The notes: generated by a model from the letters alone, not told the origin. Counted from the first letter of the stretch, positions 51,148-63,877 are shown. The stretch: DNA of 64,000 nucleotides from a virus (IMGVR_UViG_3300032247_000928:15904-79903); one strand, 5' to 3'. Numbers and translations: made by a program.

Positions 51148-51314
51148 CAGAGTGACACTCTCCACTCTGACCACATAGAGAGGCGGTCTCCGTCTGAGTC
51201 AATATACCAACGCTCTATGTTATTCTCACACTCTGTGCAGAATGTGTACTGAGTATCCGCTACCTCTGAGATAGCACTCATGTAGGGGATATGTGTATGT
51301 GTTAATGTAGTCAT
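51147..51314 (-). CDS. small CxxC protein
   Basis: MTTLTHTH...FCTECEN; SD GAAAGGTGG. Confidence 0.65.
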   Translation of the reverse strand: MTTLTHTHIPYMSAISEVADTQYTFCTECENNIERWYIDSDGDRLSMWSEWRVSL

Positions 51315-51363
51315 TGTGTGACCACCTTTCTTTATTGACACTGTGTCAATTTCTTATAAGAGA

Positions 51364-51392
51364 ATAATAACATATACCGCCCCAAAAAGCAA
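51364..51392 (-). promoter_or_regulatory. sigma-A-type promoter of the leftward mini-operon
   Basis: TTGCTT-17-TATTAT with TG extension. Confidence 0.55.
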
Positions 51393-51453
51393 GTATAGAC
51401 ACGGACAAATCGGACATGATTGGTGTGGTATTCGTCACATTTTTCCGGGCCCC

Positions 51454-51474
51454 TGTGGATAACTATGTGGATAA
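51454..51474. promoter_or_regulatory. DnaA-box pair
   Basis: TGTGGATAA-cta-TGTGGATAA (two perfect boxes). Confidence 0.7.
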
Positions 51475-51556
51475 GTAATGTGGTGTATATCACATATCCC
51501 ATATGTCCGATTTGATATATCTTGTGGTGATAATCTACTTAACATAATATATGTAG

Positions 51557-51579
51557 ATGTCAGACCCCCCTGCTATAAT
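51557..51579 (+). promoter_or_regulatory. RecA-NDp-like promoter
   Basis: ATGTCAGAC-8-TATAAT, then SD GAAAGGAG and ATG 51615. Confidence 0.7.
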
Positions 51580-51614
51580 TCTAGTATAAAGAAAAATAAA
51601 GAAAGGAGTTCCAA

Positions 51615-51755
51615 ATGAACTCACTATATGAAAATAGAAACTCACTAGAAACCTATGAACAGGTTCGTGAAAGACTCGCAGAAAGTATCTGCGATGAATG
51701 TCAGTACGCTTGCTTCGTACACAAGAGCGATTGCTCTAAGAAAGGTCGTAAATAA
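51615..51755 (+). CDS. 46-aa Cys/His protein
   Basis: MNSLYENR...CDECQYACFVHKSDC; strong SD; not in the track. Confidence 0.7.
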   Translation: MNSLYENRNSLETYEQVRERLAESICDECQYACFVHKSDCSKKGRK

Positions 51756-51756
51756 T

Positions 51757-51930
51757 ATGACAACTAATTCAATGTTAAATCCAGCGGATAGCCTAACACC
51801 TATCCTACACTTTCCTAATCGTGTTACCTATCGTTGCTACTACTGTAACGAAAGCGTATACTTTCATAAAGGTCTAAATCGTTGGGCTACTAACGATACA
51901 CTTGATATTCGCTGTAAGGAGGCTAAATAA
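51757..51930 (+). CDS. small CxxC protein
   Basis: MTTNSML...CYYC...C; start moved to the ATG after the upstream stop. Confidence 0.6.
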   Translation: MTTNSMLNPADSLTPILHFPNRVTYRCYYCNESVYFHKGLNRWATNDTLDIRCKEAK

Positions 51931-52085
51931 TGTCATACATGAAACAACTAATTGACACAGTTCTTAACTGTGAAATCTGCGGAGGTGAGGGAATTACTGA
52001 CGCATGGGTTTCACAAGATGGAGACTTTGACTTTGAGTGGTGCGATTGCAACCCTCATCATATAAGCATGGAGGTGTTTGCGTAA
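51930..52085 (+). CDS. 51-aa zinc-finger mini-protein
   Basis: CEICGGEG...WCDC; TAATG-coupled at both ends. Confidence 0.7.
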   Translation: MSYMKQLIDTVLNCEICGGEGITDAWVSQDGDFDFEWCDCNPHHISMEVFA

Positions 52086-52255
52086 TGACATACATGGAAT
52101 TACTTCAAGAGGTAAAAGCAATATCCGCAGAAATTCGTGGAGATAAAGATAGCGGAAACGCTTACTTACTTGGTTACTTGTGGGCTTCACTCACAAACGA
52201 ACAACAGATTGAAACAGCAGAATCGTTTCGTAAATATTTAGAGGAGGATAAATGA
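52085..52255 (+). CDS. hypothetical protein
   Basis: MTYMELLQEVK...; SD GGAGG. Confidence 0.7.
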   Translation: MTYMELLQEVKAISAEIRGDKDSGNAYLLGYLWASLTNEQQIETAESFRKYLEEDK

Positions 52256-52341
52256 AACACTTTTTAGAAACAGGTAATGCACTTTTCTTTTTCTCATTTT
52301 TTATTTTAATTTATTCTGCATGGTTACACTTGACAGAATGA
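52252..52341 (+). CDS. 29-aa single-TM peptide
   Basis: MKHFLETGNALFFFSFFILIYSAWLHLTE; SD GAGGAGG. Confidence 0.55.
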   Translation: MKHFLETGNALFFFSFFILIYSAWLHLTE

Positions 52342-52359
52342 TCTAAAAATTCCGGGCCG

Positions 52360-52380
52360 TTTTCCACAGGCTGTGGATAA
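52360..52380. promoter_or_regulatory. DnaA-box pair (inverted)
   Basis: TTTTCCACA-ggc-TGTGGATAA. Confidence 0.7.
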
Positions 52381-52421
52381 CTTATGTGATTAGAAACACA
52401 TTTAAGTTACGGCGTGTCGCC

Positions 52422-52450
52422 TTGACTTTTTGGGTATGCCATGCTAAGAT
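52422..52450 (+). promoter_or_regulatory. sigma-A-type promoter preceded by GGCGTGTCGC
   Basis: TTGACT-17-TAAGAT. Confidence 0.55.
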
Positions 52451-52537
52451 TCTCTTTATACAATTAAATAAACTAGCAAAACAATGTGACCAACCTCACA
52501 TTTAATTTGTCTGATATGTCCGAATTTAGATTTGTAT

Positions 52538-52560
52538 TTGTCAGCCAAAAATGCTAGACT
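52538..52560 (+). promoter_or_regulatory. RecA-NDp-like promoter
   Basis: TTGTCAGCC-8-TAGACT; also TTGTAT-17-TAGACT. Confidence 0.7.
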
Positions 52561-52595
52561 TGCCATATCAAGAAAAAAGAAAAGAAGGTGACACC

Positions 52596-52811
52596 ATGTC
52601 AGCAAACATCTACACAATATCCAACCTACTTGTAGGAAAACAATACATCTCCAAAACAATGCGTGGAGAAATCATAAGTGCAGAGCCACACCCACAACCA
52701 ATTTGGTACGATGGGTGCGAAACTTATCTCGTAGAAATTGCACCAAATAGCGGTAGCAATACTTGGGGTCGCAAGACTTTCCGCACAGTTGCAGTAAGAA
52801 AGGAAAACTAA
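52596..52811 (+). CDS. small beta-barrel-like hypothetical protein
   Basis: MSANIY...; SD GAAGGTG; start moved. Confidence 0.7.
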   Translation: MSANIYTISNLLVGKQYISKTMRGEIISAEPHPQPIWYDGCETYLVEIAPNSGSNTWGRKTFRTVAVRKEN

Positions 52812-52812
52812 T

Positions 52813-52995
52813 ATGTATAAATTAACACTAGAAACTTTTAATGGTACAGTAAAAACCATTTCCCTACCATCTAAGGGTGCAGTTGCACAATTCGTAACTT
52901 CATACCCTGACACTTTGCCAGTTGGCGTATCAGTAAAAATTGCATGTGACGCACTCGGCGTTCGTGGCACACTTCGTGGAAAGGCTTCTCTCTAA
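52813..52995 (+). CDS. hypothetical protein, paralogue of 50703
   Basis: KLTLETFNG...VKIACDALGVRGTLRG. Confidence 0.7.
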   Translation: MYKLTLETFNGTVKTISLPSKGAVAQFVTSYPDTLPVGVSVKIACDALGVRGTLRGKASL

Positions 52996-53201
52996 TGGTA
53001 CTAATTGAACACAATCTTCGTTTCGTTACAGAATTAGACGAAACAAATCCAACCGCTATTCGTTTGCTCAATCTTGAAAAAGAAATGCAAATTGAAATGC
53101 TTGAAGGCTTGCTAAAAGAAGTTCTTGCACCTATGATTCAGCCTGCGTTAGATGAAGTTAATGAAGGCAATTCATGGGCAGTTCTAAAGGTGGCAGACTA
53201 A
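52995..53201 (+). CDS. hypothetical protein
   Basis: Coupled ORF, 68 aa. Confidence 0.7.
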   Translation: MVLIEHNLRFVTELDETNPTAIRLLNLEKEMQIEMLEGLLKEVLAPMIQPALDEVNEGNSWAVLKVAD

Positions 53202-53377
53202 TGATGACACGCAAGGACTATGTAAAAGTTTCAGAAATTCTTGCAGGTTATCATCAAGCCATGATTGACAATTTCTGGTGGGAAGATTTGGTAAATGATT
53301 TCGCTCTAATGTTTGAGCAAGACAATCCAAATTTTAGTCGTCAAAAATTTACAGAAGCCTGCGAAGCGGGAATGTAA
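53201..53377 (+). CDS. conserved small phage protein
   Basis: MMTRKDY...DNPNFSRQKFTEAC; coupled. Confidence 0.7.
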   Translation: MMTRKDYVKVSEILAGYHQAMIDNFWWEDLVNDFALMFEQDNPNFSRQKFTEACEAGM

Positions 53378-53382
53378 AAATA

Positions 53383-53411
53383 AGATCCTGAGCATGATTT
53401 AAAACTGCTTA
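53383..53411 (+). ncRNA. H-type pseudoknot element (copy 1)
   Basis: AGATC-C-TGAGCA-T-GATTT-AAAAC-TGCTTA, 5 nt after a stop codon. Confidence 0.65.
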
Positions 53412-53436
53412 AAGTTTCAACTAAATTTCCGGGGCG

Positions 53437-53457
53437 TTTTCCACAGGTTTATCCACA
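53437..53457. promoter_or_regulatory. DnaA-box pair
   Basis: TTTTCCACA-ggt-TTATCCACA. Confidence 0.7.
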
Positions 53458-53511
53458 AGCTTTACGTTGTGAGATTTATCACATGCGATCTTGCCCGTTT
53501 AAGATTTGTAT

Positions 53512-53534
53512 TTGTCACCCTGAGATGATAGGAT
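53512..53534 (+). promoter_or_regulatory. RecA-NDp-like promoter
   Basis: TTGTCACCC-8-TAGGAT. Confidence 0.6.
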
Positions 53535-53565
53535 ATTTATATCAACTTAAAGAAAGAAGGCTCAC

Positions 53566-53715
53566 ATGACCGCTTATGTATGTATGCAGTGTAATGAAAA
53601 TGCAGTAGATGTAACTGAACTCTATTGCTTCCGTTGCTACCTTGACCGAGAGGTAGAGGCGATGATAGAATATGACCTTATTGACCAACTATTCGTAACG
53701 AAAGAGGCTAACTAA
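53566..53715 (+). CDS. 49-aa zinc-finger mini-protein
   Basis: CMQC...CFRC; SD GAAGG; not in the track. Confidence 0.7.
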   Translation: MTAYVCMQCNENAVDVTELYCFRCYLDREVEAMIEYDLIDQLFVTKEAN

Positions 53716-53930
53716 TGGAATACCTATACTCAGTATCTTGCACCTATGACGGAGATAAGTCTCCACACTGGGTTGGTCGCTATGATAATGCGATTGACGC
53801 AGTTAATTCTTGGAATAAGTTTATTGACTGGGGCATGGCATTAGAATATGCTACAGTTAATTTCTCAGAGCCTAATGGCAAAATGCACACAAAGATATTC
53901 TATCGTAATGGAAATGTAGGGGGTAAGTAA
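53715..53930 (+). CDS. hypothetical protein
   Basis: Coupled, 71 aa. Confidence 0.7.
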   Translation: MEYLYSVSCTYDGDKSPHWVGRYDNAIDAVNSWNKFIDWGMALEYATVNFSEPNGKMHTKIFYRNGNVGGK

Positions 53931-54028
53931 TGTCAAAAGTAATGTTATGGTTCAACGATGAAGTTAATGAAGCGTTAGACTACGCTAATGAAATGGAACT
54001 AATGGGATTAGATAAGGAGAATAAATAA
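53930..54028 (+). CDS. 32-aa acidic peptide
   Basis: TAATG-coupled at both ends. Confidence 0.5.
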   Translation: MSKVMLWFNDEVNEALDYANEMELMGLDKENK

Positions 54029-54363
54029 TGGGTTCAGTTACAGCGTTGGGAATTAAAGAAATGGTACTTGACTTGGAGACTCAGATTCTCTATCACCTTA
54101 AGGCTAATCACTATCCACCTGTACCCGCAGAAATGGTAACTGCGTGTATTGATGCGATTGATGCCTTCTATGATGAGGACTATGACCGCATGATTGATAT
54201 GCCAAAGGTTGGTGACTTTCAGATTACCTATCGTGGCTCAACACAAGCACCTGCACACGCTATCGTAGACCAACACCACCTTGATGTATTTATTGATTCT
54301 GTTGATGACTGGCAAGATGGGTCAGATGACTTTCCACTCTCACTAGAATATGATGAGGAGTAA
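54028..54363 (+). CDS. hypothetical protein
   Basis: ILYHLKANHYPPVP...AIVDQHHLDVF; SD AAGGAG. Confidence 0.75.
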   Translation: MGSVTALGIKEMVLDLETQILYHLKANHYPPVPAEMVTACIDAIDAFYDEDYDRMIDMPKVGDFQITYRGSTQAPAHAIVDQHHLDVFIDSVDDWQDGSDDFPLSLEYDEE

Positions 54364-54366
54364 TAA

Positions 54367-54606
54367 ATGCCTGCTACAATAAACAACATGGAACTCGTAT
54401 GGGCAGATAAGTTAACACCAGACTCATTGATGGTTGATGATCTGATAAAAATTGATGGAGATTTAATTGAAATCATTAATATCAGTTCTGATGGCACGGG
54501 CGATAACTATTTTATTGACTGTGTTGATGTGTATGGTGAGCCAGATACAATTACACTTGCGTATGATAAATATGTTGATTTATATGTGTATGTAGACAAA
54601 GACTAA
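54367..54606 (+). CDS. small OB/SH3-like hypothetical protein
   Basis: 79 aa; SD GAGGAG. Confidence 0.65.
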   Translation: MPATINNMELVWADKLTPDSLMVDDLIKIDGDLIEIINISSDGTGDNYFIDCVDVYGEPDTITLAYDKYVDLYVYVDKD

Positions 54607-54686
54607 TAAAAATCCCGGGGCAAAATGTCCGATTTACCCTTTTACGTTAAGTTGCATTTTTGCCTTAACTTTGCTAATATTATTAT

Positions 54687-54827
54687 ATGAAAAAGACACC
54701 TGAAGAGTTACGTAAACTTATGGAGTTACGTCGTTCTAATGCAGCGTCTGCGATCCCAAATAAAAAAAAGTACAATAGGAAAAAATGTCAGTCCCTATTG
54801 CTACAATTAAAGAAAGAAAGCGAGTAA
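54687..54827 (+). CDS. 46-aa basic peptide (leaderless)
   Basis: MKKTPEELRKLMELRRSNAASAIPNKKKYNRKK...; 6 nt after TTGCAT-17-TAATAT. Confidence 0.6.
   Translation: MKKTPEELRKLMELRRSNAASAIPNKKKYNRKKCQSLLLQLKKESE
54785..54807 (+). promoter_or_regulatory. RecA-NDp-like promoter
   Basis: ATGTCAGTC-8-TACAAT. Confidence 0.65.
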
Positions 54828-54833
54828 CCCACC

Positions 54834-55556
54834 ATGTCAAAATTACTTCGTTCAAAAGATAGGAAAGTTGCTAATGCAGTTACACCAAATGGAAAGCAAG
54901 CAAGTATCGCCAACACATTCGGACTACCAGCAGGCAAGGCTTATTCATGTCCTGGAGCGACTAGCGTATGCGAGACTGTTTGCTACGCTGGCAAGCTTGA
55001 AAAGATATTCCCAACCGTAAAAGTTAACTTACTTCATAACTGGGAACTATTGAAAGACGCAGACTATGAAACTATGGTCTCACTTCTTAATGAAATGATA
55101 ATGGACTTCAAGAAAGACTGTATCAAGAAAGACGCACCTAAACTATTCCGCATTCACTGGGACGGCGACTTCTTTAATGATACATATGCATATGCATGGA
55201 AGCAAATTATCATGAACCATAGTGATATTCAATTCTGGGTCTATACTAGAGTTAAGTCTGCAGCCCTAATGCTTAATGGCATTGCTAATCTTTCTTTATA
55301 CTATTCTACAGATAGCGAGAATAAAGAAACTGGTATTGAACTTAAAACGGATCATGGAATATCCCTTGCATACCTTGCCAAAAATTTTCAATTAGGACAA
55401 GCAGACATGAAGGAACTTACAGGCAAGCCTGGCGCTAAGTGCCCTGAGAATAAAAAGGCCATTCCGCTTATCTCAAGCAATGGGTCTGCCTGCGCTAGTT
55501 GTAAGTTGTGTATTTATCAGAAATCTGATATAGTATTTAGCGCAACCAAAAAGTAA
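54834..55556 (+). CDS. gp88-like protein (radical-SAM-like Cys motif)
   Basis: FGLPAGKAYSCPGATSVCETVCYA...FRIHWDGDFF...WVYTR; C-terminal C..CxxCxxC. Confidence 0.6.
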   Translation: MSKLLRSKDRKVANAVTPNGKQASIANTFGLPAGKAYSCPGATSVCETVCYAGKLEKIFPTVKVNLLHNWELLKDADYETMVSLLNEMIMDFKKDCIKKDAPKLFRIHWDGDFFNDTYAYAWKQIIMNHSDIQFWVYTRVKSAALMLNGIANLSLYYSTDSENKETGIELKTDHGISLAYLAKNFQLGQADMKELTGKPGAKCPENKKAIPLISSNGSACASCKLCIYQKSDIVFSATKK

Positions 55557-55565
55557 GGGAAACCT

Positions 55566-55634
55566 ATGCTAACAATAACTATACTAACTATCATAGTCGG
55601 AATTGTCCTATTCGCAGGGCTAGGGCATGAGTGA
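55566..55634 (+). CDS. 22-aa single-TM peptide
   Basis: MLTITILTIIVGIVLFAGLGHE; SD AAGGGA. Confidence 0.45.
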   Translation: MLTITILTIIVGIVLFAGLGHE

Positions 55635-55747
55635 CGCAAATCACACAGAAAGGGTCTCAATATATGAGATTTTCTAGGCTAGGAATTGTATTTCCGAGAT
55701 TTTTCGGATATACTAGAAATATCAACAACTACAGAAAAGGAAACAAA

Positions 55748-55909
55748 ATGACAGTAGCAACAGCAACTTACAAGGTCGGCGACCTCTTTACAACACAGAA
55801 GTCAAAGGTCACAGGTCAAATCTTGGAAATCAAGCCAACAGATAAGAACACAGTTCGTGTGAAGTTAGATGTAAATGGCAACACACGCTGGACAACTTGG
55901 AAGGCGTAA
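55748..55909 (+). CDS. small KOW/SH3-like protein
   Basis: YKVGDLFTT..VTGQILEI; promoter TTGTAT-17-TATACT at 55686; start moved. Confidence 0.7.
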   Translation: MTVATATYKVGDLFTTQKSKVTGQILEIKPTDKNTVRVKLDVNGNTRWTTWKA

Positions 55910-55958
55910 GCCTTTCATAGTCGCCAATGTACAGCGACTCTAAATAAGTGGCAGGAAC

Positions 55959-55986
55959 TATCCTGAGCAAGATACAAAAAGGCTCA
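55959..55986 (+). ncRNA. H-type pseudoknot element (copy 2)
   Basis: TATC-C-TGAGCA-A-GATA-CAAAAA-GGCTCA. Confidence 0.55.
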
Positions 55987-55991
55987 CTTTA

Positions 55992-56014
55992 ATGTCAGAC
56001 CAACCCCCTATAAT
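55992..56014 (+). promoter_or_regulatory. RecA-NDp-like promoter
   Basis: ATGTCAGAC-8-TATAAT. Confidence 0.7.
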
Positions 56015-56046
56015 AGAAATATAACCCACAAAAGAAAAGGAACACC

Positions 56047-56463
56047 ATGTCAAGAGCAATAACAGTAAAGGTGGCAACACCAAAAGTAATCAAGGCTTTG
56101 GAAACAAAGTTAGAAACAATCAAGAAAGACAAAGAGAACGAAGCAAGCAACGAAGCAAAGTTCCAAAAACTTAATGAAAAGTGGAAAAAGGAAATTGTTG
56201 CTTTTGCAATCGCAAATATCAAGAAGGCTGAAAATGTACGCAGTAACTATCGTTCTTGGAACAATCAGTTAAACCTTGACTTTGACATTACAGTTTCAGA
56301 ACTGGATATGCCAAAGCAACCTGAGCGTGATTTCACAACTATGCACGACCACACATATCGTGAAATGGTAGAGGAAATTAACAACGCACTTTCTATTCTC
56401 CGCATGACAGATGAGGAAACAGTTAATGCTTCTACAATGAAGCAAATTGCTCGTTATCTCTAA
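56047..56463 (+). CDS. hypothetical protein
   Basis: 138 aa; SD AAAGGA. Confidence 0.8.
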   Translation: MSRAITVKVATPKVIKALETKLETIKKDKENEASNEAKFQKLNEKWKKEIVAFAIANIKKAENVRSNYRSWNNQLNLDFDITVSELDMPKQPERDFTTMHDHTYREMVEEINNALSILRMTDEETVNASTMKQIARYL

Positions 56464-56569
56464 ATGAGGTTGGGTGGGGTGTAAAAGCCCCACTCCAATT
56501 CGCCAGGCTGATTAGGGCGATCACAGAAATACTATAGAGCAAGGTTACTGCCGACCTAAAGACGCAGAC

Positions 56570-56596
56570 CACCTGAGTAAGTGCCAAAACTGCTCA
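56570..56596 (+). ncRNA. H-type pseudoknot element (copy 3)
   Basis: CAC-C-TGAGTA-A-GTG-CCAAAAC-TGCTCA. Confidence 0.55.
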
Positions 56597-56705
56597 CCAA
56601 TATTTATTCAAGTGACTGCATAAATATGCGGGGGCCGGAAAAATGTGATGAGCATCACCTATATTAAGTCTCACTATTTAAGATTCATGGGTTTACGGTT
56701 GACAG

Positions 56706-56728
56706 TTGTCGGTACCCGCTGCTAGACT
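56706..56728 (+). promoter_or_regulatory. RecA-NDp-like promoter
   Basis: TTGTCGGTA-8-TAGACT. Confidence 0.72.
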
Positions 56729-56756
56729 TATAATAACAACAACAGAAAGAGGCCCC

Positions 56757-57197
56757 ATGGACCAAACAGTAAACTATGAAACAGAAATATTTCTTCGTGA
56801 TTCATTGGCAAAGTCATCTCTCAAGATAAGTGAACTTGAAGTTGACCTTGAAACAGTAAAAAAATTCAAAGAAGATTTAATCATCCAAAGCAACACATTG
56901 CACCGTAAGCATACTAACCTGCAGGATTCTCTTAAAGAGTGGACACGTGCAGAGTTAGCAAATGAAGATATCACAATTGAGCAAGCACAAGCGCTTGCAG
57001 AAATTGGTGAATTCACACTAACAAAATCATATGACGTAACAGTTGTAGTAGAGCACTCATTCACCGTTGAACTTGAAGCAAGCGATGACATTGATGACGT
57101 CCTTGGTACCCTTGATTTCAGTGTTGACTCTTATCACACAACAATTGATAACGTTGACTATTCAATTGTTGAAACTAACTATGATGAAACAAATTAA
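56757..57197 (+). CDS. coiled-coil hypothetical protein
   Basis: MDQTVNY...; SD AGAGG; start moved. Confidence 0.75.
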   Translation: MDQTVNYETEIFLRDSLAKSSLKISELEVDLETVKKFKEDLIIQSNTLHRKHTNLQDSLKEWTRAELANEDITIEQAQALAEIGEFTLTKSYDVTVVVEHSFTVELEASDDIDDVLGTLDFSVDSYHTTIDNVDYSIVETNYDETN

Positions 57198-57220
57198 TAT
57201 TTCATAGGGGGCTATGAAAC

Positions 57221-57283
57221 AAAGACCTGTCACATGTCTTTAAACTGGATGAGGGCCCTGAGCACGGCCACGTAAACTGCTCA
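57221..57283 (+). ncRNA. tandem pseudoknot elements (copies 4-5)
   Basis: AAAGAC-C-TGTCACA-T-GTCTTT-AAAC-TGGATG (weak P2), then GGCC-C-TGAGCA-C-GGCC-ACGTAAAC-TGCTCA-CTTTTT. Confidence 0.6.
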
Positions 57284-57404
57284 CTTTTTATTGCAAAAAT
57301 TTCCGGGCCCCAAAACTTGATCTTGTCAAGCGACACGCCATGTGATTTACGACACGTTTAAGAAATGTCCGAATTGCCCCATGTCTGATTAGCCTGATTT
57401 GCAT

Positions 57405-57427
57405 ATGTCAGTCTGTCTTGCTATACT
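57405..57427 (+). promoter_or_regulatory. RecA-NDp-like promoter
   Basis: ATGTCAGTC-8-TATACT; also TTGCAT-17-TATACT. Confidence 0.7.
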
Positions 57428-57457
57428 TAAATTTCAACAACAAAAAGGAGAAAACTC

Positions 57458-58480
57458 ATGGCACATGACCTAGAAACACAAAACGGCAAGGCATCTTTTG
57501 CATCTTTCCGTGAACCTGCATGGCATGGATTGGGTACTGTATTCACAGAAGAAAAAACAACCGCAGAAATGCTAGAGGCTGCAAACCTCAATGGTTGGAA
57601 TGTTCGTCTTGAAGATATGCCTATCCCTGCACACTTAACTACAGACAAGGCGTACCAATATGTATTGCGTACTAATCCTACAGAATCAACTCAGACCGAT
57701 ATTCTTGGTGTAGTTGGTGAGCGTTATCATGTAATGCAGAATGAAGATTTATTTTCATTCGGTGACAATATTCTTGACGGCGGGGGACGATGGGAAACCG
57801 CTGGTTCAATCAAGGGTGGGCGTGTAGTATTTGGCGCACTTGCTCTTGAGCGTGAAACTGTACTAGACCCTAATGGTGTTGCAGATAAGGTAAAAACTTA
57901 TTTGCTTATCAACACATCACACGATGGTTCAATCGCAATTCAAGCAAGCATCACACCTGTTCGTGTTGTGTGCGCTAATACTCTTAATCTTGCTCTTGGT
58001 GGCGTAGGTCGTAAGAAGAACAAGGGAATCAAGCAATCTTTCAAGATTCGCCACACACAGACAGCAAGCGGTAAGGTAGAGGTTGCTCGCCAGACTCTTG
58101 GTCTTGCTAATGCTTACATGGACGAATTTGACCTCATGGCTAAGGCTATGATTGAGAAAGAAGTCAATGCTAAGTCTTTCAATGATATTCTTCTCGCTGC
58201 TTATCCTAAGCCAGAAAAAGATGCTAAGGGTGCAATCAAGAAGTGGGAAAATAAAATTGACATGGTAAATGATATTTACACAGGTGAATTTAACGGCATG
58301 ATTGCTGGTAATGCTTGGGGTGCGTTTAATGCACTTACTGAACGCCTTGATTGGTACCGCACAGCAAGAGGTGGTTCTAACGAATCTATCCTTGCAAGCG
58401 CATCAGGATTTGACCCTGCAATTAACGCAGAGAAGAATCGTTTGCTTAAAGTTGTGCAGAATGTAATGTCTCTCGCATAA
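57458..58480 (+). CDS. DUF932 / TIGR03299 phage-plasmid family protein
   Basis: REPAWHGLG, LGVVGERYHVMQN, ETAGSIKGGRVVF, SHDGS, TPVRVVCANTL, IRHT. Confidence 0.88.
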   Translation: MAHDLETQNGKASFASFREPAWHGLGTVFTEEKTTAEMLEAANLNGWNVRLEDMPIPAHLTTDKAYQYVLRTNPTESTQTDILGVVGERYHVMQNEDLFSFGDNILDGGGRWETAGSIKGGRVVFGALALERETVLDPNGVADKVKTYLLINTSHDGSIAIQASITPVRVVCANTLNLALGGVGRKKNKGIKQSFKIRHTQTASGKVEVARQTLGLANAYMDEFDLMAKAMIEKEVNAKSFNDILLAAYPKPEKDAKGAIKKWENKIDMVNDIYTGEFNGMIAGNAWGAFNALTERLDWYRTARGGSNESILASASGFDPAINAEKNRLLKVVQNVMSLA

Positions 58481-58485
58481 TAAAA

Positions 58486-58514
58486 AATTCCTAGGCATGA
58501 ATTAAAACTACCTG
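58486..58514 (+). ncRNA. H-type pseudoknot element (copy 6), 3 nt before the tRNA
   Basis: AATTC-C-TAGGCA-T-GAATT-AAAAC-TACCTG; compensatory changes in both stems. Confidence 0.6.
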
Positions 58515-58517
58515 CAA

Positions 58518-58591
58518 GATCTCATAGCTCAATTGGTTAGAGCGCTACCCTGTCACGGTAGAGGCTACGGGTTCAAGTCCCGTTGGGGTCG
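58518..58591 (+). tRNA. trnD: tRNA-Asp (GUC), CCA not encoded
   Basis: Acceptor GATCTCA/TGGGGTC, D arm GCTC/GAGC, anticodon arm CTACC-CTGTCAC-GGTAG, T arm ACGGG-TTCAAGT-CCCGT, discriminator G. Confidence 0.92.
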
Positions 58592-58706
58592 CAGCGTAAA
58601 TGGGGCCCCGGAAAATCGGACATATAGGACATTAACTAATTAGATTAATATAAAAACTTTATTAAGAAGACTTGCTTTTTTCCCTGGAAGCGTGTAAAAT
58701 AAATGT

Positions 58707-58865
58707 ATGACCACAAAAACAAATGAAAAAACCATCGCCCAACTCGTAGAGGATATCTATGAGGACCACTTCTCTCATATTGATTTCATGGATAATATGG
58801 GGGGAGATTGTGATTGTGCAATTCACTCTACCCTGGAAACAATTCTACAGTATTGGAGTAAGTAA
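58707..58865 (+). CDS. 52-aa hypothetical protein (leaderless)
   Basis: 6 nt after TTGCTT-17-TAAAAT; CDCAIH motif. Confidence 0.6.
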   Translation: MTTKTNEKTIAQLVEDIYEDHFSHIDFMDNMGGDCDCAIHSTLETILQYWSK

Positions 58866-59014
58866 TGCTAGGATATGAAAAATCTGATTTAGATATGATG
58901 ATTGCTAGTGTAAACATTGCTTCTAAGCAGTTGGGCAATTCAGGTATTGCTAAGGGTCTAGAAGAAGTATCTAGTTTCTTACAAGGTCTATGGGCAGAAG
59001 GGTACTTTGACTAA
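58865..59014 (+). CDS. 49-aa hypothetical protein
   Basis: MLGYEKSDLD...LQGLWAEGYFD; coupled at both ends. Confidence 0.65.
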   Translation: MLGYEKSDLDMMIASVNIASKQLGNSGIAKGLEEVSSFLQGLWAEGYFD

Positions 59015-59196
59015 TGCAAATTAAATCCCGTGAAATTACATACCGCCAAATAGTTGAGCAGATCTTCTTTGAGGACGGAACAGAGTTGGTAGTTACAACT
59101 GGTTGGCCTGAAGGACAGGAGTTTGACATTGATGTTAAATTAGACTGGGTAACAGGAGAGCCTGAGTGGGCAGAGGAGTATGTTCATGAAGCATAA
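59014..59196 (+). CDS. hypothetical protein
   Basis: Coupled, 60 aa. Confidence 0.65.
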   Translation: MQIKSREITYRQIVEQIFFEDGTELVVTTGWPEGQEFDIDVKLDWVTGEPEWAEEYVHEA

Positions 59197-59299
59197 GCAC
59201 CATTGGCTATGTAGTGATGTACCAGGTGTTTATACTTGTACATTTAATTGTGGGTTTGGATATTGGAATCCTAAGACAGAACAAATAGAGGAGCAATAA
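59186..59299 (+). CDS. 37-aa His/Cys peptide
   Basis: MKHKHHWLC...CTFNCG; SD GAGGAG; coupled to the next gene. Confidence 0.5.
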   Translation: MKHKHHWLCSDVPGVYTCTFNCGFGYWNPKTEQIEEQ

Positions 59300-59502
59300 T
59301 GTGGACTAAGTATGATTATGTATGTAGTGATTGTGATGCTCTTGTTGAGATAACTACCCTGCAAAATATCAGGGAGTGGCGTGGCTGGTGTTCTTGTGGA
59401 TCTGCTAATCTAATTAATATTAGTGTCATGGATGCCTTTGAGCCTGTGATGAGTATCACACCTAAGAACCTTGTAAAAATCAACACCAACCCCTATAATT
59501 AA
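59299..59502 (+). CDS. zinc-ribbon protein
   Basis: CSDC...CSC. Confidence 0.65.
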   Translation: MWTKYDYVCSDCDALVEITTLQNIREWRGWCSCGSANLINISVMDAFEPVMSITPKNLVKINTNPYN

Positions 59503-59519
59503 TATAAAGGAGAAAACAA

Positions 59520-59702
59520 ATGCCAATGTATGACTTGAAGGTAATCGTAGAATATAACTACGAGGTAGAAGCAGATAACGCAGACGAAGCAGAAAAGCTT
59601 GGTTGGGAGTACGAGGACTACGGATTCCCTGAAGTTTATTCTATTGATGTAGATGAACAGTATGAGGAAGATGAAGTTGAATTAGATGAGGAAGTAATCT
59701 AA
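59520..59702 (+). CDS. small acidic protein
   Basis: YEVEADNADEAEKL motif; SD AAGGAG. Confidence 0.7.
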   Translation: MPMYDLKVIVEYNYEVEADNADEAEKLGWEYEDYGFPEVYSIDVDEQYEEDEVELDEEVI

Positions 59703-59866
59703 TGGAAATGCCAACCTTCATTGAGTATATGAAGATTCATGAGATTAGTCTTATGCAAGACTTAGAGAAGATTGACTATGTAAACAATCATCACTTCTAT
59801 AGACTTAAAGAAGCAGAAATTTATAACACCCGTCATCTATTGTCAGTAGCAGAGGATAGAATATAA
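59702..59866 (+). CDS. 54-aa hypothetical protein
   Basis: Hand translation MEMPTFIEYMKIHEISL...; coupled. Confidence 0.55.
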   Translation: MEMPTFIEYMKIHEISLMQDLEKIDYVNNHHFYRLKEAEIYNTRHLLSVAEDRI

Positions 59867-59868
59867 TT

Positions 59869-60138
59869 ATGGAAAATGACCCAACAATACTAGAACCATA
59901 TCTACAACGCATGGTAGACGCAGGCATGGACGGTGCAGATATAATGCATGGTCATCTTAAAACTCTCATGCTAGAAGCAGAAACACAACTAACCCTAGCC
60001 CAAGAAGCAGAAGACGAATCAGAGGAAGCAATGGATTCTATGGAGCGCCGCTATTGGGAAGGTGTATGCGAAGCCTATGGAGAACTATATAGTTTGACAT
60101 ATGCAATTGCATTTGCGAAGGGAAAACAAAATGCCTAA
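59869..60138 (+). CDS. acidic hypothetical protein
   Basis: DSMERRYWEG motif, 89 aa. Confidence 0.7.
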   Translation: MENDPTILEPYLQRMVDAGMDGADIMHGHLKTLMLEAETQLTLAQEAEDESEEAMDSMERRYWEGVCEAYGELYSLTYAIAFAKGKQNA

Positions 60139-60310
60139 GTGTTTAGACTGCGGTCAAACCGAGCAATTTTGGTATGACGAAACATCTCATAAGCTTGGTA
60201 AATATAATGAAGATGGGGATCTTCTAGACGTTGAGACAGATTGGTATGATGACGTTACGAACGGTCATTGTGGAGTCTGTGACTCAGAAAATATTGAGGG
60301 TAGGCTGTAG
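60131..60310 (+). CDS. zinc-ribbon protein
   Basis: MPKCLDCG...CGVCDS; start moved. Confidence 0.7.
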   Translation: MPKCLDCGQTEQFWYDETSHKLGKYNEDGDLLDVETDWYDDVTNGHCGVCDSENIEGRL

Positions 60311-60372
60311 GTCTTGACAGTCCCCTGCATTTTTGATAGAATTATATAAACCACTAGTAGAAAGTAACCACC

Positions 60373-61101
60373 ATGCCAAACTGGGTATATAACGGATTAA
60401 CTGTAGAAGGTAATCCTGAACAAGTTAAGAAAATGATTGTTCAATTAAATAAACCATTTGTTTATTCTGTTCAATCTAATGGCGATTTAGCCTATACAGT
60501 TAGACAGCGCAAGTATGTTAATCCTATCTTTGCATTCCATAATATCTATTCATATAAAGATGCAGGTATTACTGATGAGCAATATCATGGTGTTCCTACA
60601 TTCCCCGAAAAATTTGATATGAAATTTGACGGCAATGACTGGTATAACTTTAACAACCGTGAGTGGGGCACTAAGTGGGATGTAGCCGTAGCAGAAGATG
60701 ACCAGTATAGTAATACTAGTATTCAAGAAGCAGAGAACGGTGAAAACTATGTAGTTCACTATAACTTTGAAACAGCATGGTCTAGGCCAATCCCTGCATT
60801 GCAAAAACTATCTGCTCAATATCCAACATTACTCTTTACCTTATCATATGAGGAAGAAACAGGTTGGGGTGGGGAGATGGAATTCTTACGTGGTGAGATT
60901 ATTTCATCATCAGAATATGACAGTATGTGTAGAGATTGTGATGCCACAGATTGCATGGAATACTGCGAAAATGATTGTGGTGAGATATGTTCTGTATGCC
61001 ATTGGCTAGGAGAAGCAGACTTAGAGGCAGTTGCAGAATGTGATGACCACAAGATATACTTAGATACAAAAGTTCCTGAATACCGAAAGGCAGATGCATG
61101 A
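60373..61101 (+). CDS. Api92/YubB-like (DUF1281) protein with Cys-rich C-terminus
   Basis: MPNWVYN.L, DWYNFNNREWGTKWD, FETAWSRP, YEEETGWGG; own promoter TTGACA-17-TAGAAT at 60314. Confidence 0.75.
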   Translation: MPNWVYNGLTVEGNPEQVKKMIVQLNKPFVYSVQSNGDLAYTVRQRKYVNPIFAFHNIYSYKDAGITDEQYHGVPTFPEKFDMKFDGNDWYNFNNREWGTKWDVAVAEDDQYSNTSIQEAENGENYVVHYNFETAWSRPIPALQKLSAQYPTLLFTLSYEEETGWGGEMEFLRGEIISSSEYDSMCRDCDATDCMEYCENDCGEICSVCHWLGEADLEAVAECDDHKIYLDTKVPEYRKADA

Positions 61102-61412
61102 GACCCGATGACAAAGATAAACTAAACCAATGCTTAACAATACTAGAAAGCACAGACTTAGGTCTTTCATTAGTATGGCTATGGACGTGGAGTACAGTCA
61201 AGAACTTTATGGAAGATACTGAATACCGCTTTAATTTCTCAGAAGATGAGATTTGGGATAAACTAGTAGAGGCTACTAAGGCTGGTCATGGTTTCTCTCT
61301 GGAGTATGGTGCAGAGCAGAACTATGAAGACATTCGTGACTGGCTAACAGATAACGATATCATGACGGACCTAATGTTTGAGGAGGATGAAGATGAAGAC
61401 GACAGTGAGTGA
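61098..61412 (+). CDS. acidic hypothetical protein
   Basis: 104 aa, coupled. Confidence 0.7.
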   Translation: MRPDDKDKLNQCLTILESTDLGLSLVWLWTWSTVKNFMEDTEYRFNFSEDEIWDKLVEATKAGHGFSLEYGAEQNYEDIRDWLTDNDIMTDLMFEEDEDEDDSE

Positions 61413-61728
61413 TTTAATTTATGCAGGTTCATTTGCAGTTGACTCAGGCCAAGCAATGGTTGGTGACCCATGCTATCTAGATGGTTGGGAACCGTGGGAA
61501 GATGGTACACCTTTTGATCATGAGAATAAGTCTGGGCAGTATGGCTATCTAGGTGCAAGCGGTGTAACTCTTAAACAAAACTATGGCACATTAGGTGCTG
61601 CAGATGCAGTTGTATTTTCAACGGGATATGGAGATGGGCTCTACCCTGTATACGTACAACTAAATTCCGATGGACGTGTTGCTAAGGTAGTTATTGATTT
61701 TGAGGGAGACATTGAGGCGGACGAGTGA
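61405..61728 (+). CDS. DUF4241-like protein
   Basis: FAVDSGQAMVGDP...FSTGYGDGLYPVY; GTG start. Confidence 0.55.
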   Translation: MSDLIYAGSFAVDSGQAMVGDPCYLDGWEPWEDGTPFDHENKSGQYGYLGASGVTLKQNYGTLGAADAVVFSTGYGDGLYPVYVQLNSDGRVAKVVIDFEGDIEADE

Positions 61729-61792
61729 ACTGGACACAGTTAACTTTATTTGATATCATTGAAGTAAACGACCTAACAGAGGAGCAAGAATA

Positions 61793-62173
61793 ATGGGAGC
61801 ACGTATTAATTTTGTATTTAAAACAGATGAGTTCGCTGTAGGAGAACCTGAGTCATATGTAGTTCTCTATTCACACTGGGGCCAAGATTCCTGGGAGTCA
61901 GACCTGGCAGAGGCGCTGCAGCATGCACGTCCTAGATGGGATGACGCTTCATATGGTACCCGCATGATTATTAGTTATCTTATTCAACATAACATTTTGG
62001 ATGAGACAGGGTTTGGTATTTATTCTATCAGTGATATTTCTAGGGACCTAGGAGAGCAGACGGTCATCATTGACTTCACTGACAAGACTATTACTGATAC
62101 TCAGCCCGTGGAATGGGACGCATTCATAAATGCATACGGGCCAAAGCTTTTCGCTGAGCATGTGATAGGGTAG
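61793..62173 (+). CDS. hypothetical protein
   Basis: MGARINF...LYSHWG motif; SD GAGGAG. Confidence 0.75.
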   Translation: MGARINFVFKTDEFAVGEPESYVVLYSHWGQDSWESDLAEALQHARPRWDDASYGTRMIISYLIQHNILDETGFGIYSISDISRDLGEQTVIIDFTDKTITDTQPVEWDAFINAYGPKLFAEHVIG

Positions 62174-62259
62174 GGTCACCCTGTCCATATAATGAGACGG
62201 GGGTCAGGTGTTTGTGGTGGGGACTTGACCCCCTCTCAACCTTTTGATAGAATGGAGAG

Positions 62260-62499
62260 ATGATGAGTAGAGGCTTTCACTTAAGGGCAAGCAAGGAAGA
62301 AAAGGTTGCCACAACCATTGGTCGCCTTCTATCTGACTTTACCCTTGACCTTGAGGCAGTTGGAAAGTATCTTGCAACAGCCAATCCATATGTTATTTAT
62401 GCGAGGGCAGTTGAAGTTCTAGAATCAGCAGAGTATAATAAAACCACAGCAGAATACAGAGAGATAGGAAAATACTATGGCAACGACCTTTTCCAATAA
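62260..62499 (+). CDS. hypothetical protein
   Basis: 6 nt after TTGACC-17-TAGAAT. Confidence 0.65.
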   Translation: MMSRGFHLRASKEEKVATTIGRLLSDFTLDLEAVGKYLATANPYVIYARAVEVLESAEYNKTTAEYREIGKYYGNDLFQ

Positions 62500-62743
62500 A
62501 GTAAAAATACTTTCACAGTTTTGGGAACAGTATAGATTTAATGACGAGTATTCTGATTTTGTAGAATATAACGATTTAGGTTTGCCACTTGCACACTTGA
62601 ACGAACAAGGTTTGGCAGTAATCACAACCGAAGGAGAAAATTATATTGCAGAAACATTTGAGTATCTGCTTGCAAGACTTGACTCTGATGACAATGATTT
62701 TACAGAACTAGAAGAAATTTTTACTTCCGCTTCACAGGGGTAA
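62477..62743 (+). CDS. acidic hypothetical protein
   Basis: FVEYNDLGLPLA motif. Confidence 0.7.
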   Translation: MATTFSNKVKILSQFWEQYRFNDEYSDFVEYNDLGLPLAHLNEQGLAVITTEGENYIAETFEYLLARLDSDDNDFTELEEIFTSASQG

Positions 62744-63008
62744 AACTGCCAGGGATCTCACGGTTGCAGTCTCGTGGGATTTTTGGCCCCCGGAAATTGG
62801 ACATATAGTACAAACCACCCAAACCATTTTTTGCCAAAATAACATTACGATGCAAACCTAAAAATCCCTGGAGCTTTTTTCCAAAACCTTTCTATCATAC
62901 AAACCTTATATTGTCAAACCTCCAATTGATCAAACCTCAAAGCCAGAATATATGGTTTGTCTATTAGTGGTATTACGAACACTCTTTAAATTCCCTGGAC
63001 TTTTCAGG

Positions 63009-63031
63009 TTGTCAGTGGTCTCTGTTACAAT
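63009..63031 (+). promoter_or_regulatory. RecA-NDp-like promoter (exact consensus)
   Basis: TTGTCAGTG-8-TACAAT. Confidence 0.7.
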
Positions 63032-63235
63032 ACCGCCCCATTAGGGCGCCCCGCTTTTGGCGGGGGATTACGAAGATCAATCCAAATCCCTACAGTATAT
63101 ACAGTATAAAACCTTCAAACCTTTTTGCTGGATTTTGCAGAAATATCCAAACCTTTTTATATTTTTTCTGGATATTTTGTACATTTTCTGGACATTTTTG
63201 TACATTTTGTACAGGGTTTTTTGTCCATAAAAGGT

Positions 63236-63264
63236 TTGACAAATAGAAAGGTTTGGGGTATAAT
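63236..63264 (+). promoter_or_regulatory. consensus sigma-70/sigma-A promoter inside the iteron region
   Basis: TTGACA-17-TATAAT; no ORF directly downstream. Confidence 0.6.
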
Positions 63265-63547
63265 CCGCATGCAAGATATAAGGTTTGAGAGGTTTGACAA
63301 ATGGGAAGGTTTGTGATAGGAGGTTTGGCCGTTAGACATTACGAAGCCATCTGTCTAATATGCTCAATAACATGGTAGACAAACCAGATATGATATGTCT
63401 GACACATCTAAAAAATATCAGTAACATTTAAATTGCTATCAAACCTCTCAAACCTCTCAATTTGGACCTATATATAGTGGGTATTTAAGGTTTTAAACCA
63501 TACATATTGTGTAAAAATCCAGGGGACAAATAAGGTATACTTGGTAT

Positions 63548-63877
63548 ATGATATTTACAGATGAAGCAATAAAGAAAGTAGCAAACCTTATTACAGAATC
63601 TCAGATAACAACTCCTGGAAAGCCACAGTTTTTGAGGGTATCGGTTTCTCCTGGAGGATGTTCTGGTTTACGCTATCAAACCTATTTTGATTATGAAGAA
63701 AAAGAAGGTGATTCGGTATATCCTTTTGAAGGTTTTTCTCTTAGGGTGGATAAACTCTCCGACCCATATCTACAGGGTTCAACTTTTGATTTTGTAGACA
63801 CCATAGAAAAACAAGGTTTTACAATAGATAACCCTAATGCTCAAGGCTCTTGTGCCTGTGGAGATAGTTTTCACTAA
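63548..63877 (+). CDS. erpA: A-type Fe-S carrier (HesB/IscA/ErpA family)
   Basis: LRVSVSPGGCSGLRY...FTIDNPNAQGSCACGDSF; leaderless after TATACT. Confidence 0.92.
   Translation: MIFTDEAIKKVANLITESQITTPGKPQFLRVSVSPGGCSGLRYQTYFDYEEKEGDSVYPFEGFSLRVDKLSDPYLQGSTFDFVDTIEKQGFTIDNPNAQGSCACGDSFH

Follow-up and report, generated by a model that had tools for sequence, protein, structure and literature searches.

The 64-kb window analyzed here (the whole stretch IMGVR_UViG_3300032247_000928:15904-79903) covers the final 64 kb of a linear IMG/VR record of an uncultured lake virus, 79.9 kb long and ~73% complete. Large structural genes occupy the minus strand up to ~47.5 kb, and beyond them small plus-strand genes continue to the end of the record. 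The subject of this study is the gene arm at 51.3–62.9 kb of the window, in which we count 11 clusters of small plus-strand genes and 12 spacers (S1–S12) totaling 2.2 kb, bearing out a first-pass annotation of this DNA that had described about ten short gene clusters parted by spacers. The spacers are composite: a pseudoknot, a GC-rich word (the GC box), DnaA- and CRP-type sites, further short boxes and a promoter of the PafBC type recur in them, and most clusters own a promoter.

The place of the arm in a larger phage genome can be read from comparison with other phages. The portal protein is 44–46% identical to the portals of Streptomyces phages of 126–134 kb (Stanwilliamsviridae), and both the GP88-family gene at 54834–55556 and the DUF932 gene at 57458–58480 match genes that those phages have in two copies per record, as part of their long terminal repeats. 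In related contigs of 111–119 kb the arm lies at the contig end. From the portal identity, the terminal-repeat gene matches and the contig-end position in relatives, an actinobacterium is very probably the host, and what had been called the "accessory arm" very probably corresponds to the terminal early region of a ~112-kb phage, which looks lytic. Megablast of the arm against a phage collection returned no match, and a sensitive search gave short gene matches only, to Mycobacterium and Streptomyces phages. Among 30 open reading frames (ORFs) of the arm, with about six short ORFs (29–88 amino acids) outside the scan, Pfam recognized GP88, DUF932, DUF1281_C and DUF4241 only, and PHROGs assigned the arm proteins to families of unknown function only. 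A DUF932 protein search of IMG/VR gave 420 relatives, from which 80 loci (1.36 Mb), many of their spacers orthologous, were kept; these are the related loci referred to below.

Order and conservation of the spacer elements

What the spacers contain, in which order and at which positions, and how far it is conserved, are direct observations. In the window and the 80 loci alike the parts run from pseudoknot to GC box, DnaA pair, CRP palindrome, ATGTCCGA box and TGTCRG-N10-TANNNT promoter, the near-fixed order that the first-pass annotation had described; we take hundreds of related phages to have this layout. Among the related loci the pseudoknot comes first by 302 to 0 and DnaA precedes CRP by 128 to 12, with nearly all parts ahead of the promoter; the exception in the window is one extra reversed ATGTCCGA box in S1. 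TTCCGGGSC, with up to one mismatch allowed, has 8 sites in the window, all at 51443–62795 (5 forward, 3 reverse). ATGTCCGAWT has 8 in the arm. The exact DnaA box TTATCCACA has 4 sites, all in S1–S3 and paired with a 3-bp gap, and TGTGA-N6-TCACA occurs in S2, in S3 and at one intragenic site of the window. Across the whole 79.9-kb record, 6 of 6 ATGTCCGA sites and 5 of 5 TTTCCGGG sites fall inside the 2.2 kb of spacers. For none of the named motifs is the observed count attained in any of 1000 shuffles of the spacers that preserve dinucleotides, so the motifs pass the frequency comparison that had been proposed for them. Matches between spacers span 11–24 bp only, and because these are the boxes themselves the spacers are not one duplicated block; the earlier view of the parts as separately conserved short elements, and not the products of one recent duplication, is upheld. 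Footprinting of S8 orthologues shows a variable GC box among parts that are conserved, namely the pseudoknot, the CRP site, the ATGTCCGA box and the promoter. A literature search with the box sequences returned unrelated papers only, apparently through chance matches.

The motif that had been called a TGTCR-type promoter proved to be real, and the 22-nt geometry of TGTCRG-N10-TANNNT is identical to that of the actinobacterial PafBC consensus (PMC8635444). This consensus, tGTCgg(N10)tA(N3)T (RecA-NDp), joins -26 and -10 elements without a -35 and is read in mycobacteria by sigma adaptation. The window holds 9 such promoters versus 1.03 expected, 8 of them in the arm and all of these on the plus strand ahead of genes, and the related loci hold 605 on the plus strand versus 37 on the minus strand. 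Downstream of each TGTCRG element stand a -10 box, a Shine-Dalgarno sequence and then a gene. S1 and S6 are without a -35 element; TTGNAT stands 17 bp upstream of the -10 in S2, S3 and S8, and TTGACA in S7. A WYL-domain gene is absent from the 80-kb phage record. Two other readings of TGTCAG, as a shifted -35 element or as an analogue of the MotA box, were dropped, the spacing fitting the PafBC -26 element (PMC8635444).

Upstream of the promoter the remaining sites keep regular distances. The CRP motif is one conserved between phyla (PMC10187061). Counted from TGTCRG, its sites begin at -44, -54 and -64/65, a phasing of ~10 bp that would set TGTGA-N6-TCACA on one helix face upstream of the promoter, as in class I CRP promoters; exact palindromes number 356 in the related loci. 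The ATGTCCGA box, whose family-wide form is AAATGTCCGWTTTG, starts at -41, -33 or -24, and an additional family-wide box, CGACACGCC, absent from the list of the first-pass annotation, is as common in the family. Since the sites resemble those of PafBC, DnaA and CRP and are phased, control by these host factors is plausible and is the most economical reading. The same abundance of consensus-quality sites in a short arm that is probably injected first could also be explained by a decoy array, which would disturb the host by sequestering its DnaA, CRP and PafBC. We consider this very improbable: the sites are few per genome compared with host regulons, TGTCRG never stands without the -10 box, Shine-Dalgarno sequence and gene that go with it, and the fixed order and ~10-bp steps to the promoter fit promoter control.

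The DnaA pairs admit a further explanation. In bacteria, a basal unwinding system consists of tandem DnaA boxes no more than 3 bp apart, a GC-rich region and then DnaA-trios (PMC8287927), and the GC boxes and tandem DnaA boxes might likewise be origin-like modules for replication or DnaA-driven opening, not transcription control. Tandem boxes no more than 3 bp apart do adjoin a GC-rich region here. In S1–S3 the GC box lies 0–2 nt from the DnaA pair, with its 3-bp gap, and an A/T run lies on the other side; the 3-bp gap dominates family-wide (78 of 136 contexts), and G+C averages 72% over the 10 nt that precede the first DnaA box, versus 31% in the rest of the segment. However, the orientation of the boxes is not fixed, both being reverse in S1, convergent in S2 and forward in S3, and the GC word is 8–10 bp long versus ~4 bp in the published system. 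Five of the 8 GC boxes have no DnaA box nearby, the three modules crowd within 2 kb with each upstream of a promoter, and no DnaA-trio array was seen on reading the sequence, although no formal trio search was made. An unwinding role is thus improbable, and transcription control by host factors remains our preferred reading of these sites.

Two observations concern neighboring boxes. The box CGGCGTGTCG / CGACACGCC (52410–52421 and 57330–57339; loci L002–L081) occurs in both orientations ~120–145 bp upstream of promoters, and its GACAC core matches the WhiA site of Streptomyces. To the right of the arm, 62853–63683 contains 16 copies of CAAACCT/AGGTTTG (28 in the whole window versus 11.5 expected), in blocks that alternate in orientation around a perfect TTGACA-17-TATAAT promoter at 63236. 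Many relatives have three or four DnaA boxes at the matching place, and for this reason DnaA boxes appear to have been replaced in this genome by another iteron-like word.

The pseudoknot is supported by covariation. In an alignment of 96 distinct copies all 5 pairs of stem 1 change on both sides; one of them is AU in 43 copies, UA in 27, CG in 13 and GC in 13, with none unpaired. Stem 2 (UGAGCA/UGCUCA) is invariant in these rows save for a wobble-compatible C/U, an invariance that the row-selection pattern itself fixes; a separate scan found a few compensatory stem-2 variants elsewhere. The structure starts 3–6 nt past the stop codon, an ORF ends within 80 nt upstream in 147 of 159 copies, and a TTTT run follows in 47 of the 159 only. 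Rfam identified tRNA only, with no family matching the pseudoknot, and a generic terminator scan of the plus strand gave nothing useful. Folding of the spacer ends placed hairpins in S5, S6, S7, S8, S11 and S12 only, several spacers being without a terminator-like hairpin. With T runs behind a minority of pseudoknots and hairpins in part of the spacers, the view of the first-pass annotation that each cassette is an autonomous unit is at most conjectural.

The GC-rich word

The GC box as first proposed survives in part. Its 8 TTCCGGGSC sites are indeed confined to arm spacers, but the exact word is nearly absent from the relatives (11 matches in 1.36 Mb), and in the closest of them the box differs by 1–3 bases at orthologous places. 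The conserved feature is a GC-rich patch after an A/T run, not the exact word. Groups of loci have recurrent words of their own, including CCGCCCC (9 copies in L066), CCCGAGG, CCCGGGC, GCCCGGC, GGGACGTCCC and GCTGGCC, mostly at the same spacer position, and several relatives' words are palindromic. NootNoot (NC_042009; L082, 0.7–10.1 kb) has 15 TGTCSGSSCSGGACA sites per terminal repeat copy and Coruscant (NC_070782; L083, 0.8–11.2 kb) has 16 GGCGCCSGGCGCC sites in its terminal repeat. These GC palindromes stand one per early-gene spacer, and neither phage has such a site in the ~110 kb between the repeats. S9 and S12 (GGGGCCCCGGAAAATCGGACAT) resemble the NootNoot arrangement.

Because the word is uniform within this genome and in several relatives and yet different between related genomes, as with stoperators and their repressors (PMC6550527), these patterns suggest a sequence-specific reader that would evolve with the phage. 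A bolder proposal is that, from lake phages to Streptomyces phages, a lineage's own GC word heads every early control region, in the terminal arm only, and is read by a fast-evolving, probably phage-encoded factor, making it a lineage-specific master switch or self-recognition mark beside promoters taken over from the PafBC alarm of the host for single-stranded DNA; we advance this tentatively and hold it to be somewhat doubtful. A Chi-like reading of the word was rejected, the word occurring in both orientations and often being palindromic. A comparison of protein clusters with GC words was uninformative, being dominated by shared ancestry, and its one match was an ORF artefact over a spacer.

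The positions of all elements are collected in Table 1, and some spacers have features of their own. The tRNA-Asp of S9 is kept in ~74 of the 80 relatives, whose own GC word also lies 3′ of the tRNA. In S5, the half-site of the inverted repeat is similar to the ATGTCCGA box as well as to the core of the GC box, TTTCCGG, and the repeat may be an operator overlapping the S5 promoter. The small ORF in S4 encodes 46 amino acids, is basic, has no Shine-Dalgarno sequence and starts directly after the promoter-like TAATAT box; its DNA is kept in ~64 of 80 relatives, and it could represent a leaderless mini-gene, or no more than a leader.

Table 1. Elements of spacers S1–S12, in window positions; strand is given for whole spacers.
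Spacer	Element	Position	Strand	Remark
S1	Spacer	51300–51614	+	
S1	Reversed ATGTCCGA box	51408–51417		
S1	CRP-like sites	51424–51439, 51479–51494		
S1	GC box	51443–51451		
S1	DnaA pair	51454–51462, 51466–51474		
S1	ATGTCCGATT	51503–51512		
S1	PafBC-type promoter	51558–51579		
S2	Spacer	52342–52595	+	
S2	GC box	52350–52358		
S2	DnaA pair	52360–52368, 52372–52380		
S2	Degenerate CRP-like site	52385–52400		
S2	CGGCGTGTCGCC box	52410–52421		
S2	Sigma-70-like promoter	52422–52450		
S2	CRP palindrome	52485–52500		
S2	ATGTCCGAAT	52516–52525		
S2	PafBC-type promoter	52539–52560		
S3	Spacer	53378–53565	+	
S3	Pseudoknot	53383–53411		
S3	GC box	53427–53435		
S3	DnaA pair	53437–53445, 53449–53457		
S3	CRP palindrome	53468–53483		
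S3	Variant promoter	53513–53534		TGTCAC-N10-TAGGAT
S4	Spacer	54607–54833	+	
S4	GC box	54613–54621		TCCCGGGGC
S4	ATGTCCGATT	54625–54634		
S4	Promoter-like TTGCAT..TAATAT	near 54654–54682		
S4	Small ORF	54687–54827		Contains PafBC-type promoter 54786–54807 of the GP88-family gene (54834–55556)
S5	Spacer	55636–55747	+	Without GC box or pseudoknot
S5	Promoter TTGTAT-17-TATACT	55686–55714		
S5	Inverted repeat TCCGA-N6-TCGGA	55693–55708		In the promoter's spacer
S6	Spacer	55910–56046	+	Hairpin after stop codon
S6	Pseudoknot variant	55958–55986		
S6	PafBC-type promoter	55993–56014		
S7	Spacer	56464–56756	+	
S7	GC-rich hairpin	56469–56499		
S7	Pseudoknot	56569–56596		
S7	Reversed GC box	56632–56640		Adjoins TGTGAT..ATCAC repeat
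S7	Promoter TTGACA	56699		Overlaps TGTCGG-N10-TAGACT at 56707–56728
S8	Spacer	57198–57457	+	Upstream of the DUF932 gene (57458–58480)
S8	Hairpin	57200–57219		
S8	Pseudoknot	57253–57283		
S8	GC box	57301–57309		
S8	TTGTCAAGCGACACGCC	57323–57339		
S8	Degenerate CRP-like site	57341–57356		
S8	ATGTCCGAAT	57365–57374		
S8	ATGTCTGATT	57381–57390		
S8	PafBC-type promoter	57406–57427		
S9	Spacer	58481–58706	+	
S9	Pseudoknot variant	58486–58514		Stem 2 with two compensatory changes (read by eye)
S9	tRNA-Asp	58518–58592		
S9	Reversed GC box	58605–58613		Abuts reversed ATGTCCGATT
S9	Reversed ATGTCCGATT	58614–58623		
S10	Spacer	60311–60372	+	Canonical promoter only
S10	Promoter TTGACA-17-TAGAAT	60314–60342		
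S11	Spacer	62174–62259	+	
S11	Long hairpin	62193–62238		Overlaps canonical promoter
S11	Canonical promoter TTGACC-17-TAGAAT	62225–62253		No other part of the kit
S12	Spacer	62744–62810	+	Arm end
S12	16-bp hairpin	62748–62787		
S12	Reversed GC box	62787–62795		
S12	Reversed degenerate ATGTCCAATT	62795–62804		

Gene exchange in the arm

The arm is mosaic: some of its genes are covered by 0–7 of the 80 loci and others by up to all 80, and cassette order is permuted in some relatives (e.g., L006, L007 and L031). There is precedent for such plasticity in the promoter-early stem-loop (PeSL) cassettes of the hyperplastic regions of T4-type phages (PMC2839356, PMC4122927), and the spacers here could be mobile PeSL-like regulatory cassettes whose boxes, the GC box above all, act as homologous points of gain, loss and shuffling. 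The first-pass annotation had likewise suggested that the repeated boxes could serve as exchange points, an idea that the junctions do not support. Where homology between the window and the 80 relatives ends, it does so with an excess at the starts and stops of genes (31.7% of ends versus 11.9% of the sequence), not at the GC box (9.8% versus 9.1% of spacer sequence) or at any other spacer box. Among 20 clean insertions or deletions between close relatives, with junctions read by eye, none lies in a GC box. About 12 are exactly at stop/start junctions without involvement of a spacer, and 1–2 are intragenic. Five or six have their junctions within a promoter, in its -35 element, its spacer or its -10 (e.g., L043/L071, L043/L072 and L017/L021), and one lies between the pseudoknot and the GC patch; these last two groups are what mobile regulatory cassettes would lead one to expect. 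Yet the 11–24 bp shared between spacers are short for homologous recombination, and the GC words differ between relatives, so that pairing between genomes would not be possible. Mobile cassettes joined through their boxes are therefore unlikely. Judged by the positions of homology ends and indel junctions, some PeSL-like exchange probably takes place at promoters, but a role of the GC box as exchange point finds no support. Boxes that recur between the genes of a mosaic region should thus not be taken for recombination points as a matter of course, the junctions here being mostly at gene boundaries.

Mosaicism is well illustrated by the gene at 56757–57197, which is covered by 1–3 of the 80 loci. 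It encodes 146 amino acids with a predicted coiled-coil N-terminus and an acidic C-terminus, without a Pfam or PHROG match. In the relatives read closely, unrelated sequence of similar length replaces it exactly from start to stop codon, and on these alignments the position is a hypervariable slot, next to which the conserved DUF932 gene follows downstream. Just outside the arm, at the record end (63548–63877), lies a gene for a 109-amino-acid IscA/HesB-type Fe-S cluster assembly protein (PF01521 Fe-S_biosyn, E = 9e-15).

Proposed early control and known systems

We regard it as probable that this DNA is the early terminal arm of a ~112-kb lytic actinophage, distant kin of the Stanwilliamsviridae, organized as many short transcription units with composite control spacers. 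In what follows, the contacts of proteins with DNA, the function of the RNA and the time of expression are what we infer from the sequence. The pseudoknot, 3–6 nt past the last stop, would be a 3′-end stabilizer, a processing signal or a weak terminator of the preceding unit. Next, the short GC-rich word would be read by a sequence-specific factor, probably phage-encoded, and the sites that follow would bind host DnaA (tandem, 3 bp apart) and CRP (~10-bp phased), accompanied by the boxes AAATGTCCGWTTTG and CGACACGCC. The promoter, with its -26 and -10 elements, would belong to the class that host PafBC serves by sigma adaptation, and the Shine-Dalgarno sequence and genes come last, such that the order of the parts would be the order that their functions require. 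The best reading is that the arm behaves as rich promoter control and not as a device for swapping gene cassettes; it would evolve as a mosaic, gene by gene, the junctions falling at gene boundaries and, for part of the exchange, inside promoters.

Several observations weigh against this model. The top GC-rich noncoding 7-mer beats all 100 shuffles in 21 of 81 loci, so that by this mononucleotide-shuffle null the GC word is clearly over-represented in about a quarter of loci only. As for a reader of the word, the 80-kb record contains no WYL, ParB, Lsr2 or WhiB domain, and no DNA-binding Pfam domain was found in the 30 ORFs scanned, about six short ones lying outside the scan. Counts over the 80 loci include many orthologous spacers and are not independent events. 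Usable -35 elements stand beside some TGTCRG promoters, for example TTGACA at 56699, and NootNoot promoters have TGTCCY, not TGTCRG, at -26, so the -26 element might have a reader other than PafBC.

If the model is true, a very abundant group of freshwater actinobacterial phages would run its early program through host PafBC, DnaA and CRP, and would also use a private GC word and a new RNA pseudoknot close to the stop codon. Concrete cis-elements, open to test, would then be at hand in hosts and phages of which most have yet to be cultured.

In the host-takeover module of Bacillus phage SPO1, within its terminal redundancy, and in the pre-early terminal repeat of T5, many small early genes likewise lie at a genome end under numerous promoters set close together. 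Those early regions rely on plain strong host-sigma promoters, unlike this arm, and to our knowledge neither an ordered multi-site upstream kit nor a lineage-specific word has been described for them. The spacers of the arm are composite intergenic control cassettes, a known kind to which T4 PeSLs, Cluster A stoperators and PafBC promoters can be compared. The first-pass annotation knew of no description of such an architecture, which overlooks the composite terminator-promoter cassettes, the PeSLs, of T4-type phages (PMC2839356, PMC4122927). In both cases a 3′ RNA structure and an early promoter are combined in one intergenic unit, which recurs between the small non-essential genes of a plastic region, and some indel junctions between relatives, read by eye in the arm, lie inside promoters. 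The differences are also clear. Here the RNA structure and the promoter are 35–300 bp apart with regulator-type sites between them, not compactly joined; the copies share 11–24 bp only and do not have the likeness of recombining cassettes; most junctions are at gene boundaries; and in place of a plain sigma-70 early promoter stands one of the PafBC type, in a phage whose host is very probably an actinobacterium.

In Cluster A mycobacteriophages the stoperator consensus differs between lineages and tracks the cognate repressor (PMC6550527). The GC word is similar in being a short word at many intergenic places of one genome (8 GC boxes here) with a lineage-dependent consensus, the latter clear in 21 of 81 loci only. 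Unlike stoperators, GC words do not keep to one orientation (5 forward, 3 reverse) and often form palindromes. They are restricted to the early arm or terminal repeat, where they lie upstream of promoters, not inside transcription units. The cognate repressor is known for stoperators, whereas no candidate protein was found here, in a phage that looks lytic. With PafBC promoters (PMC8635444) the arm shares the identical 22-nt geometry, a -26 element plus a canonical -10. It differs in that these promoters are in a phage, in arrays of ~8 per arm, that A is preferred at position 5 (TGTCAG), and that some copies have a -35-like hexamer.

The terminal repeats of NootNoot and Coruscant offer another comparison, for whose spacers our literature search found no published description. 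Nearly every small gene there has its own spacer, consisting of a hairpin, a phage-specific GC palindrome, other repeats (CGGACAT mainly in NootNoot) and a promoter, and the GP88-family and DUF932 genes are common to this arm. In contrast to the arm, these high-G+C genomes have GC hairpin terminators instead of the pseudoknot, and no DnaA pairs or CRP palindromes were seen by eye in their spacers. NootNoot promoters have the form TGTCCY-N10-TAGACT, and Coruscant promoters end in TGTAAGCT. Both phages are cultured and similar in spacer design, and so the shared layout of hairpin, lineage GC palindrome and promoter could already be tested at the bench.

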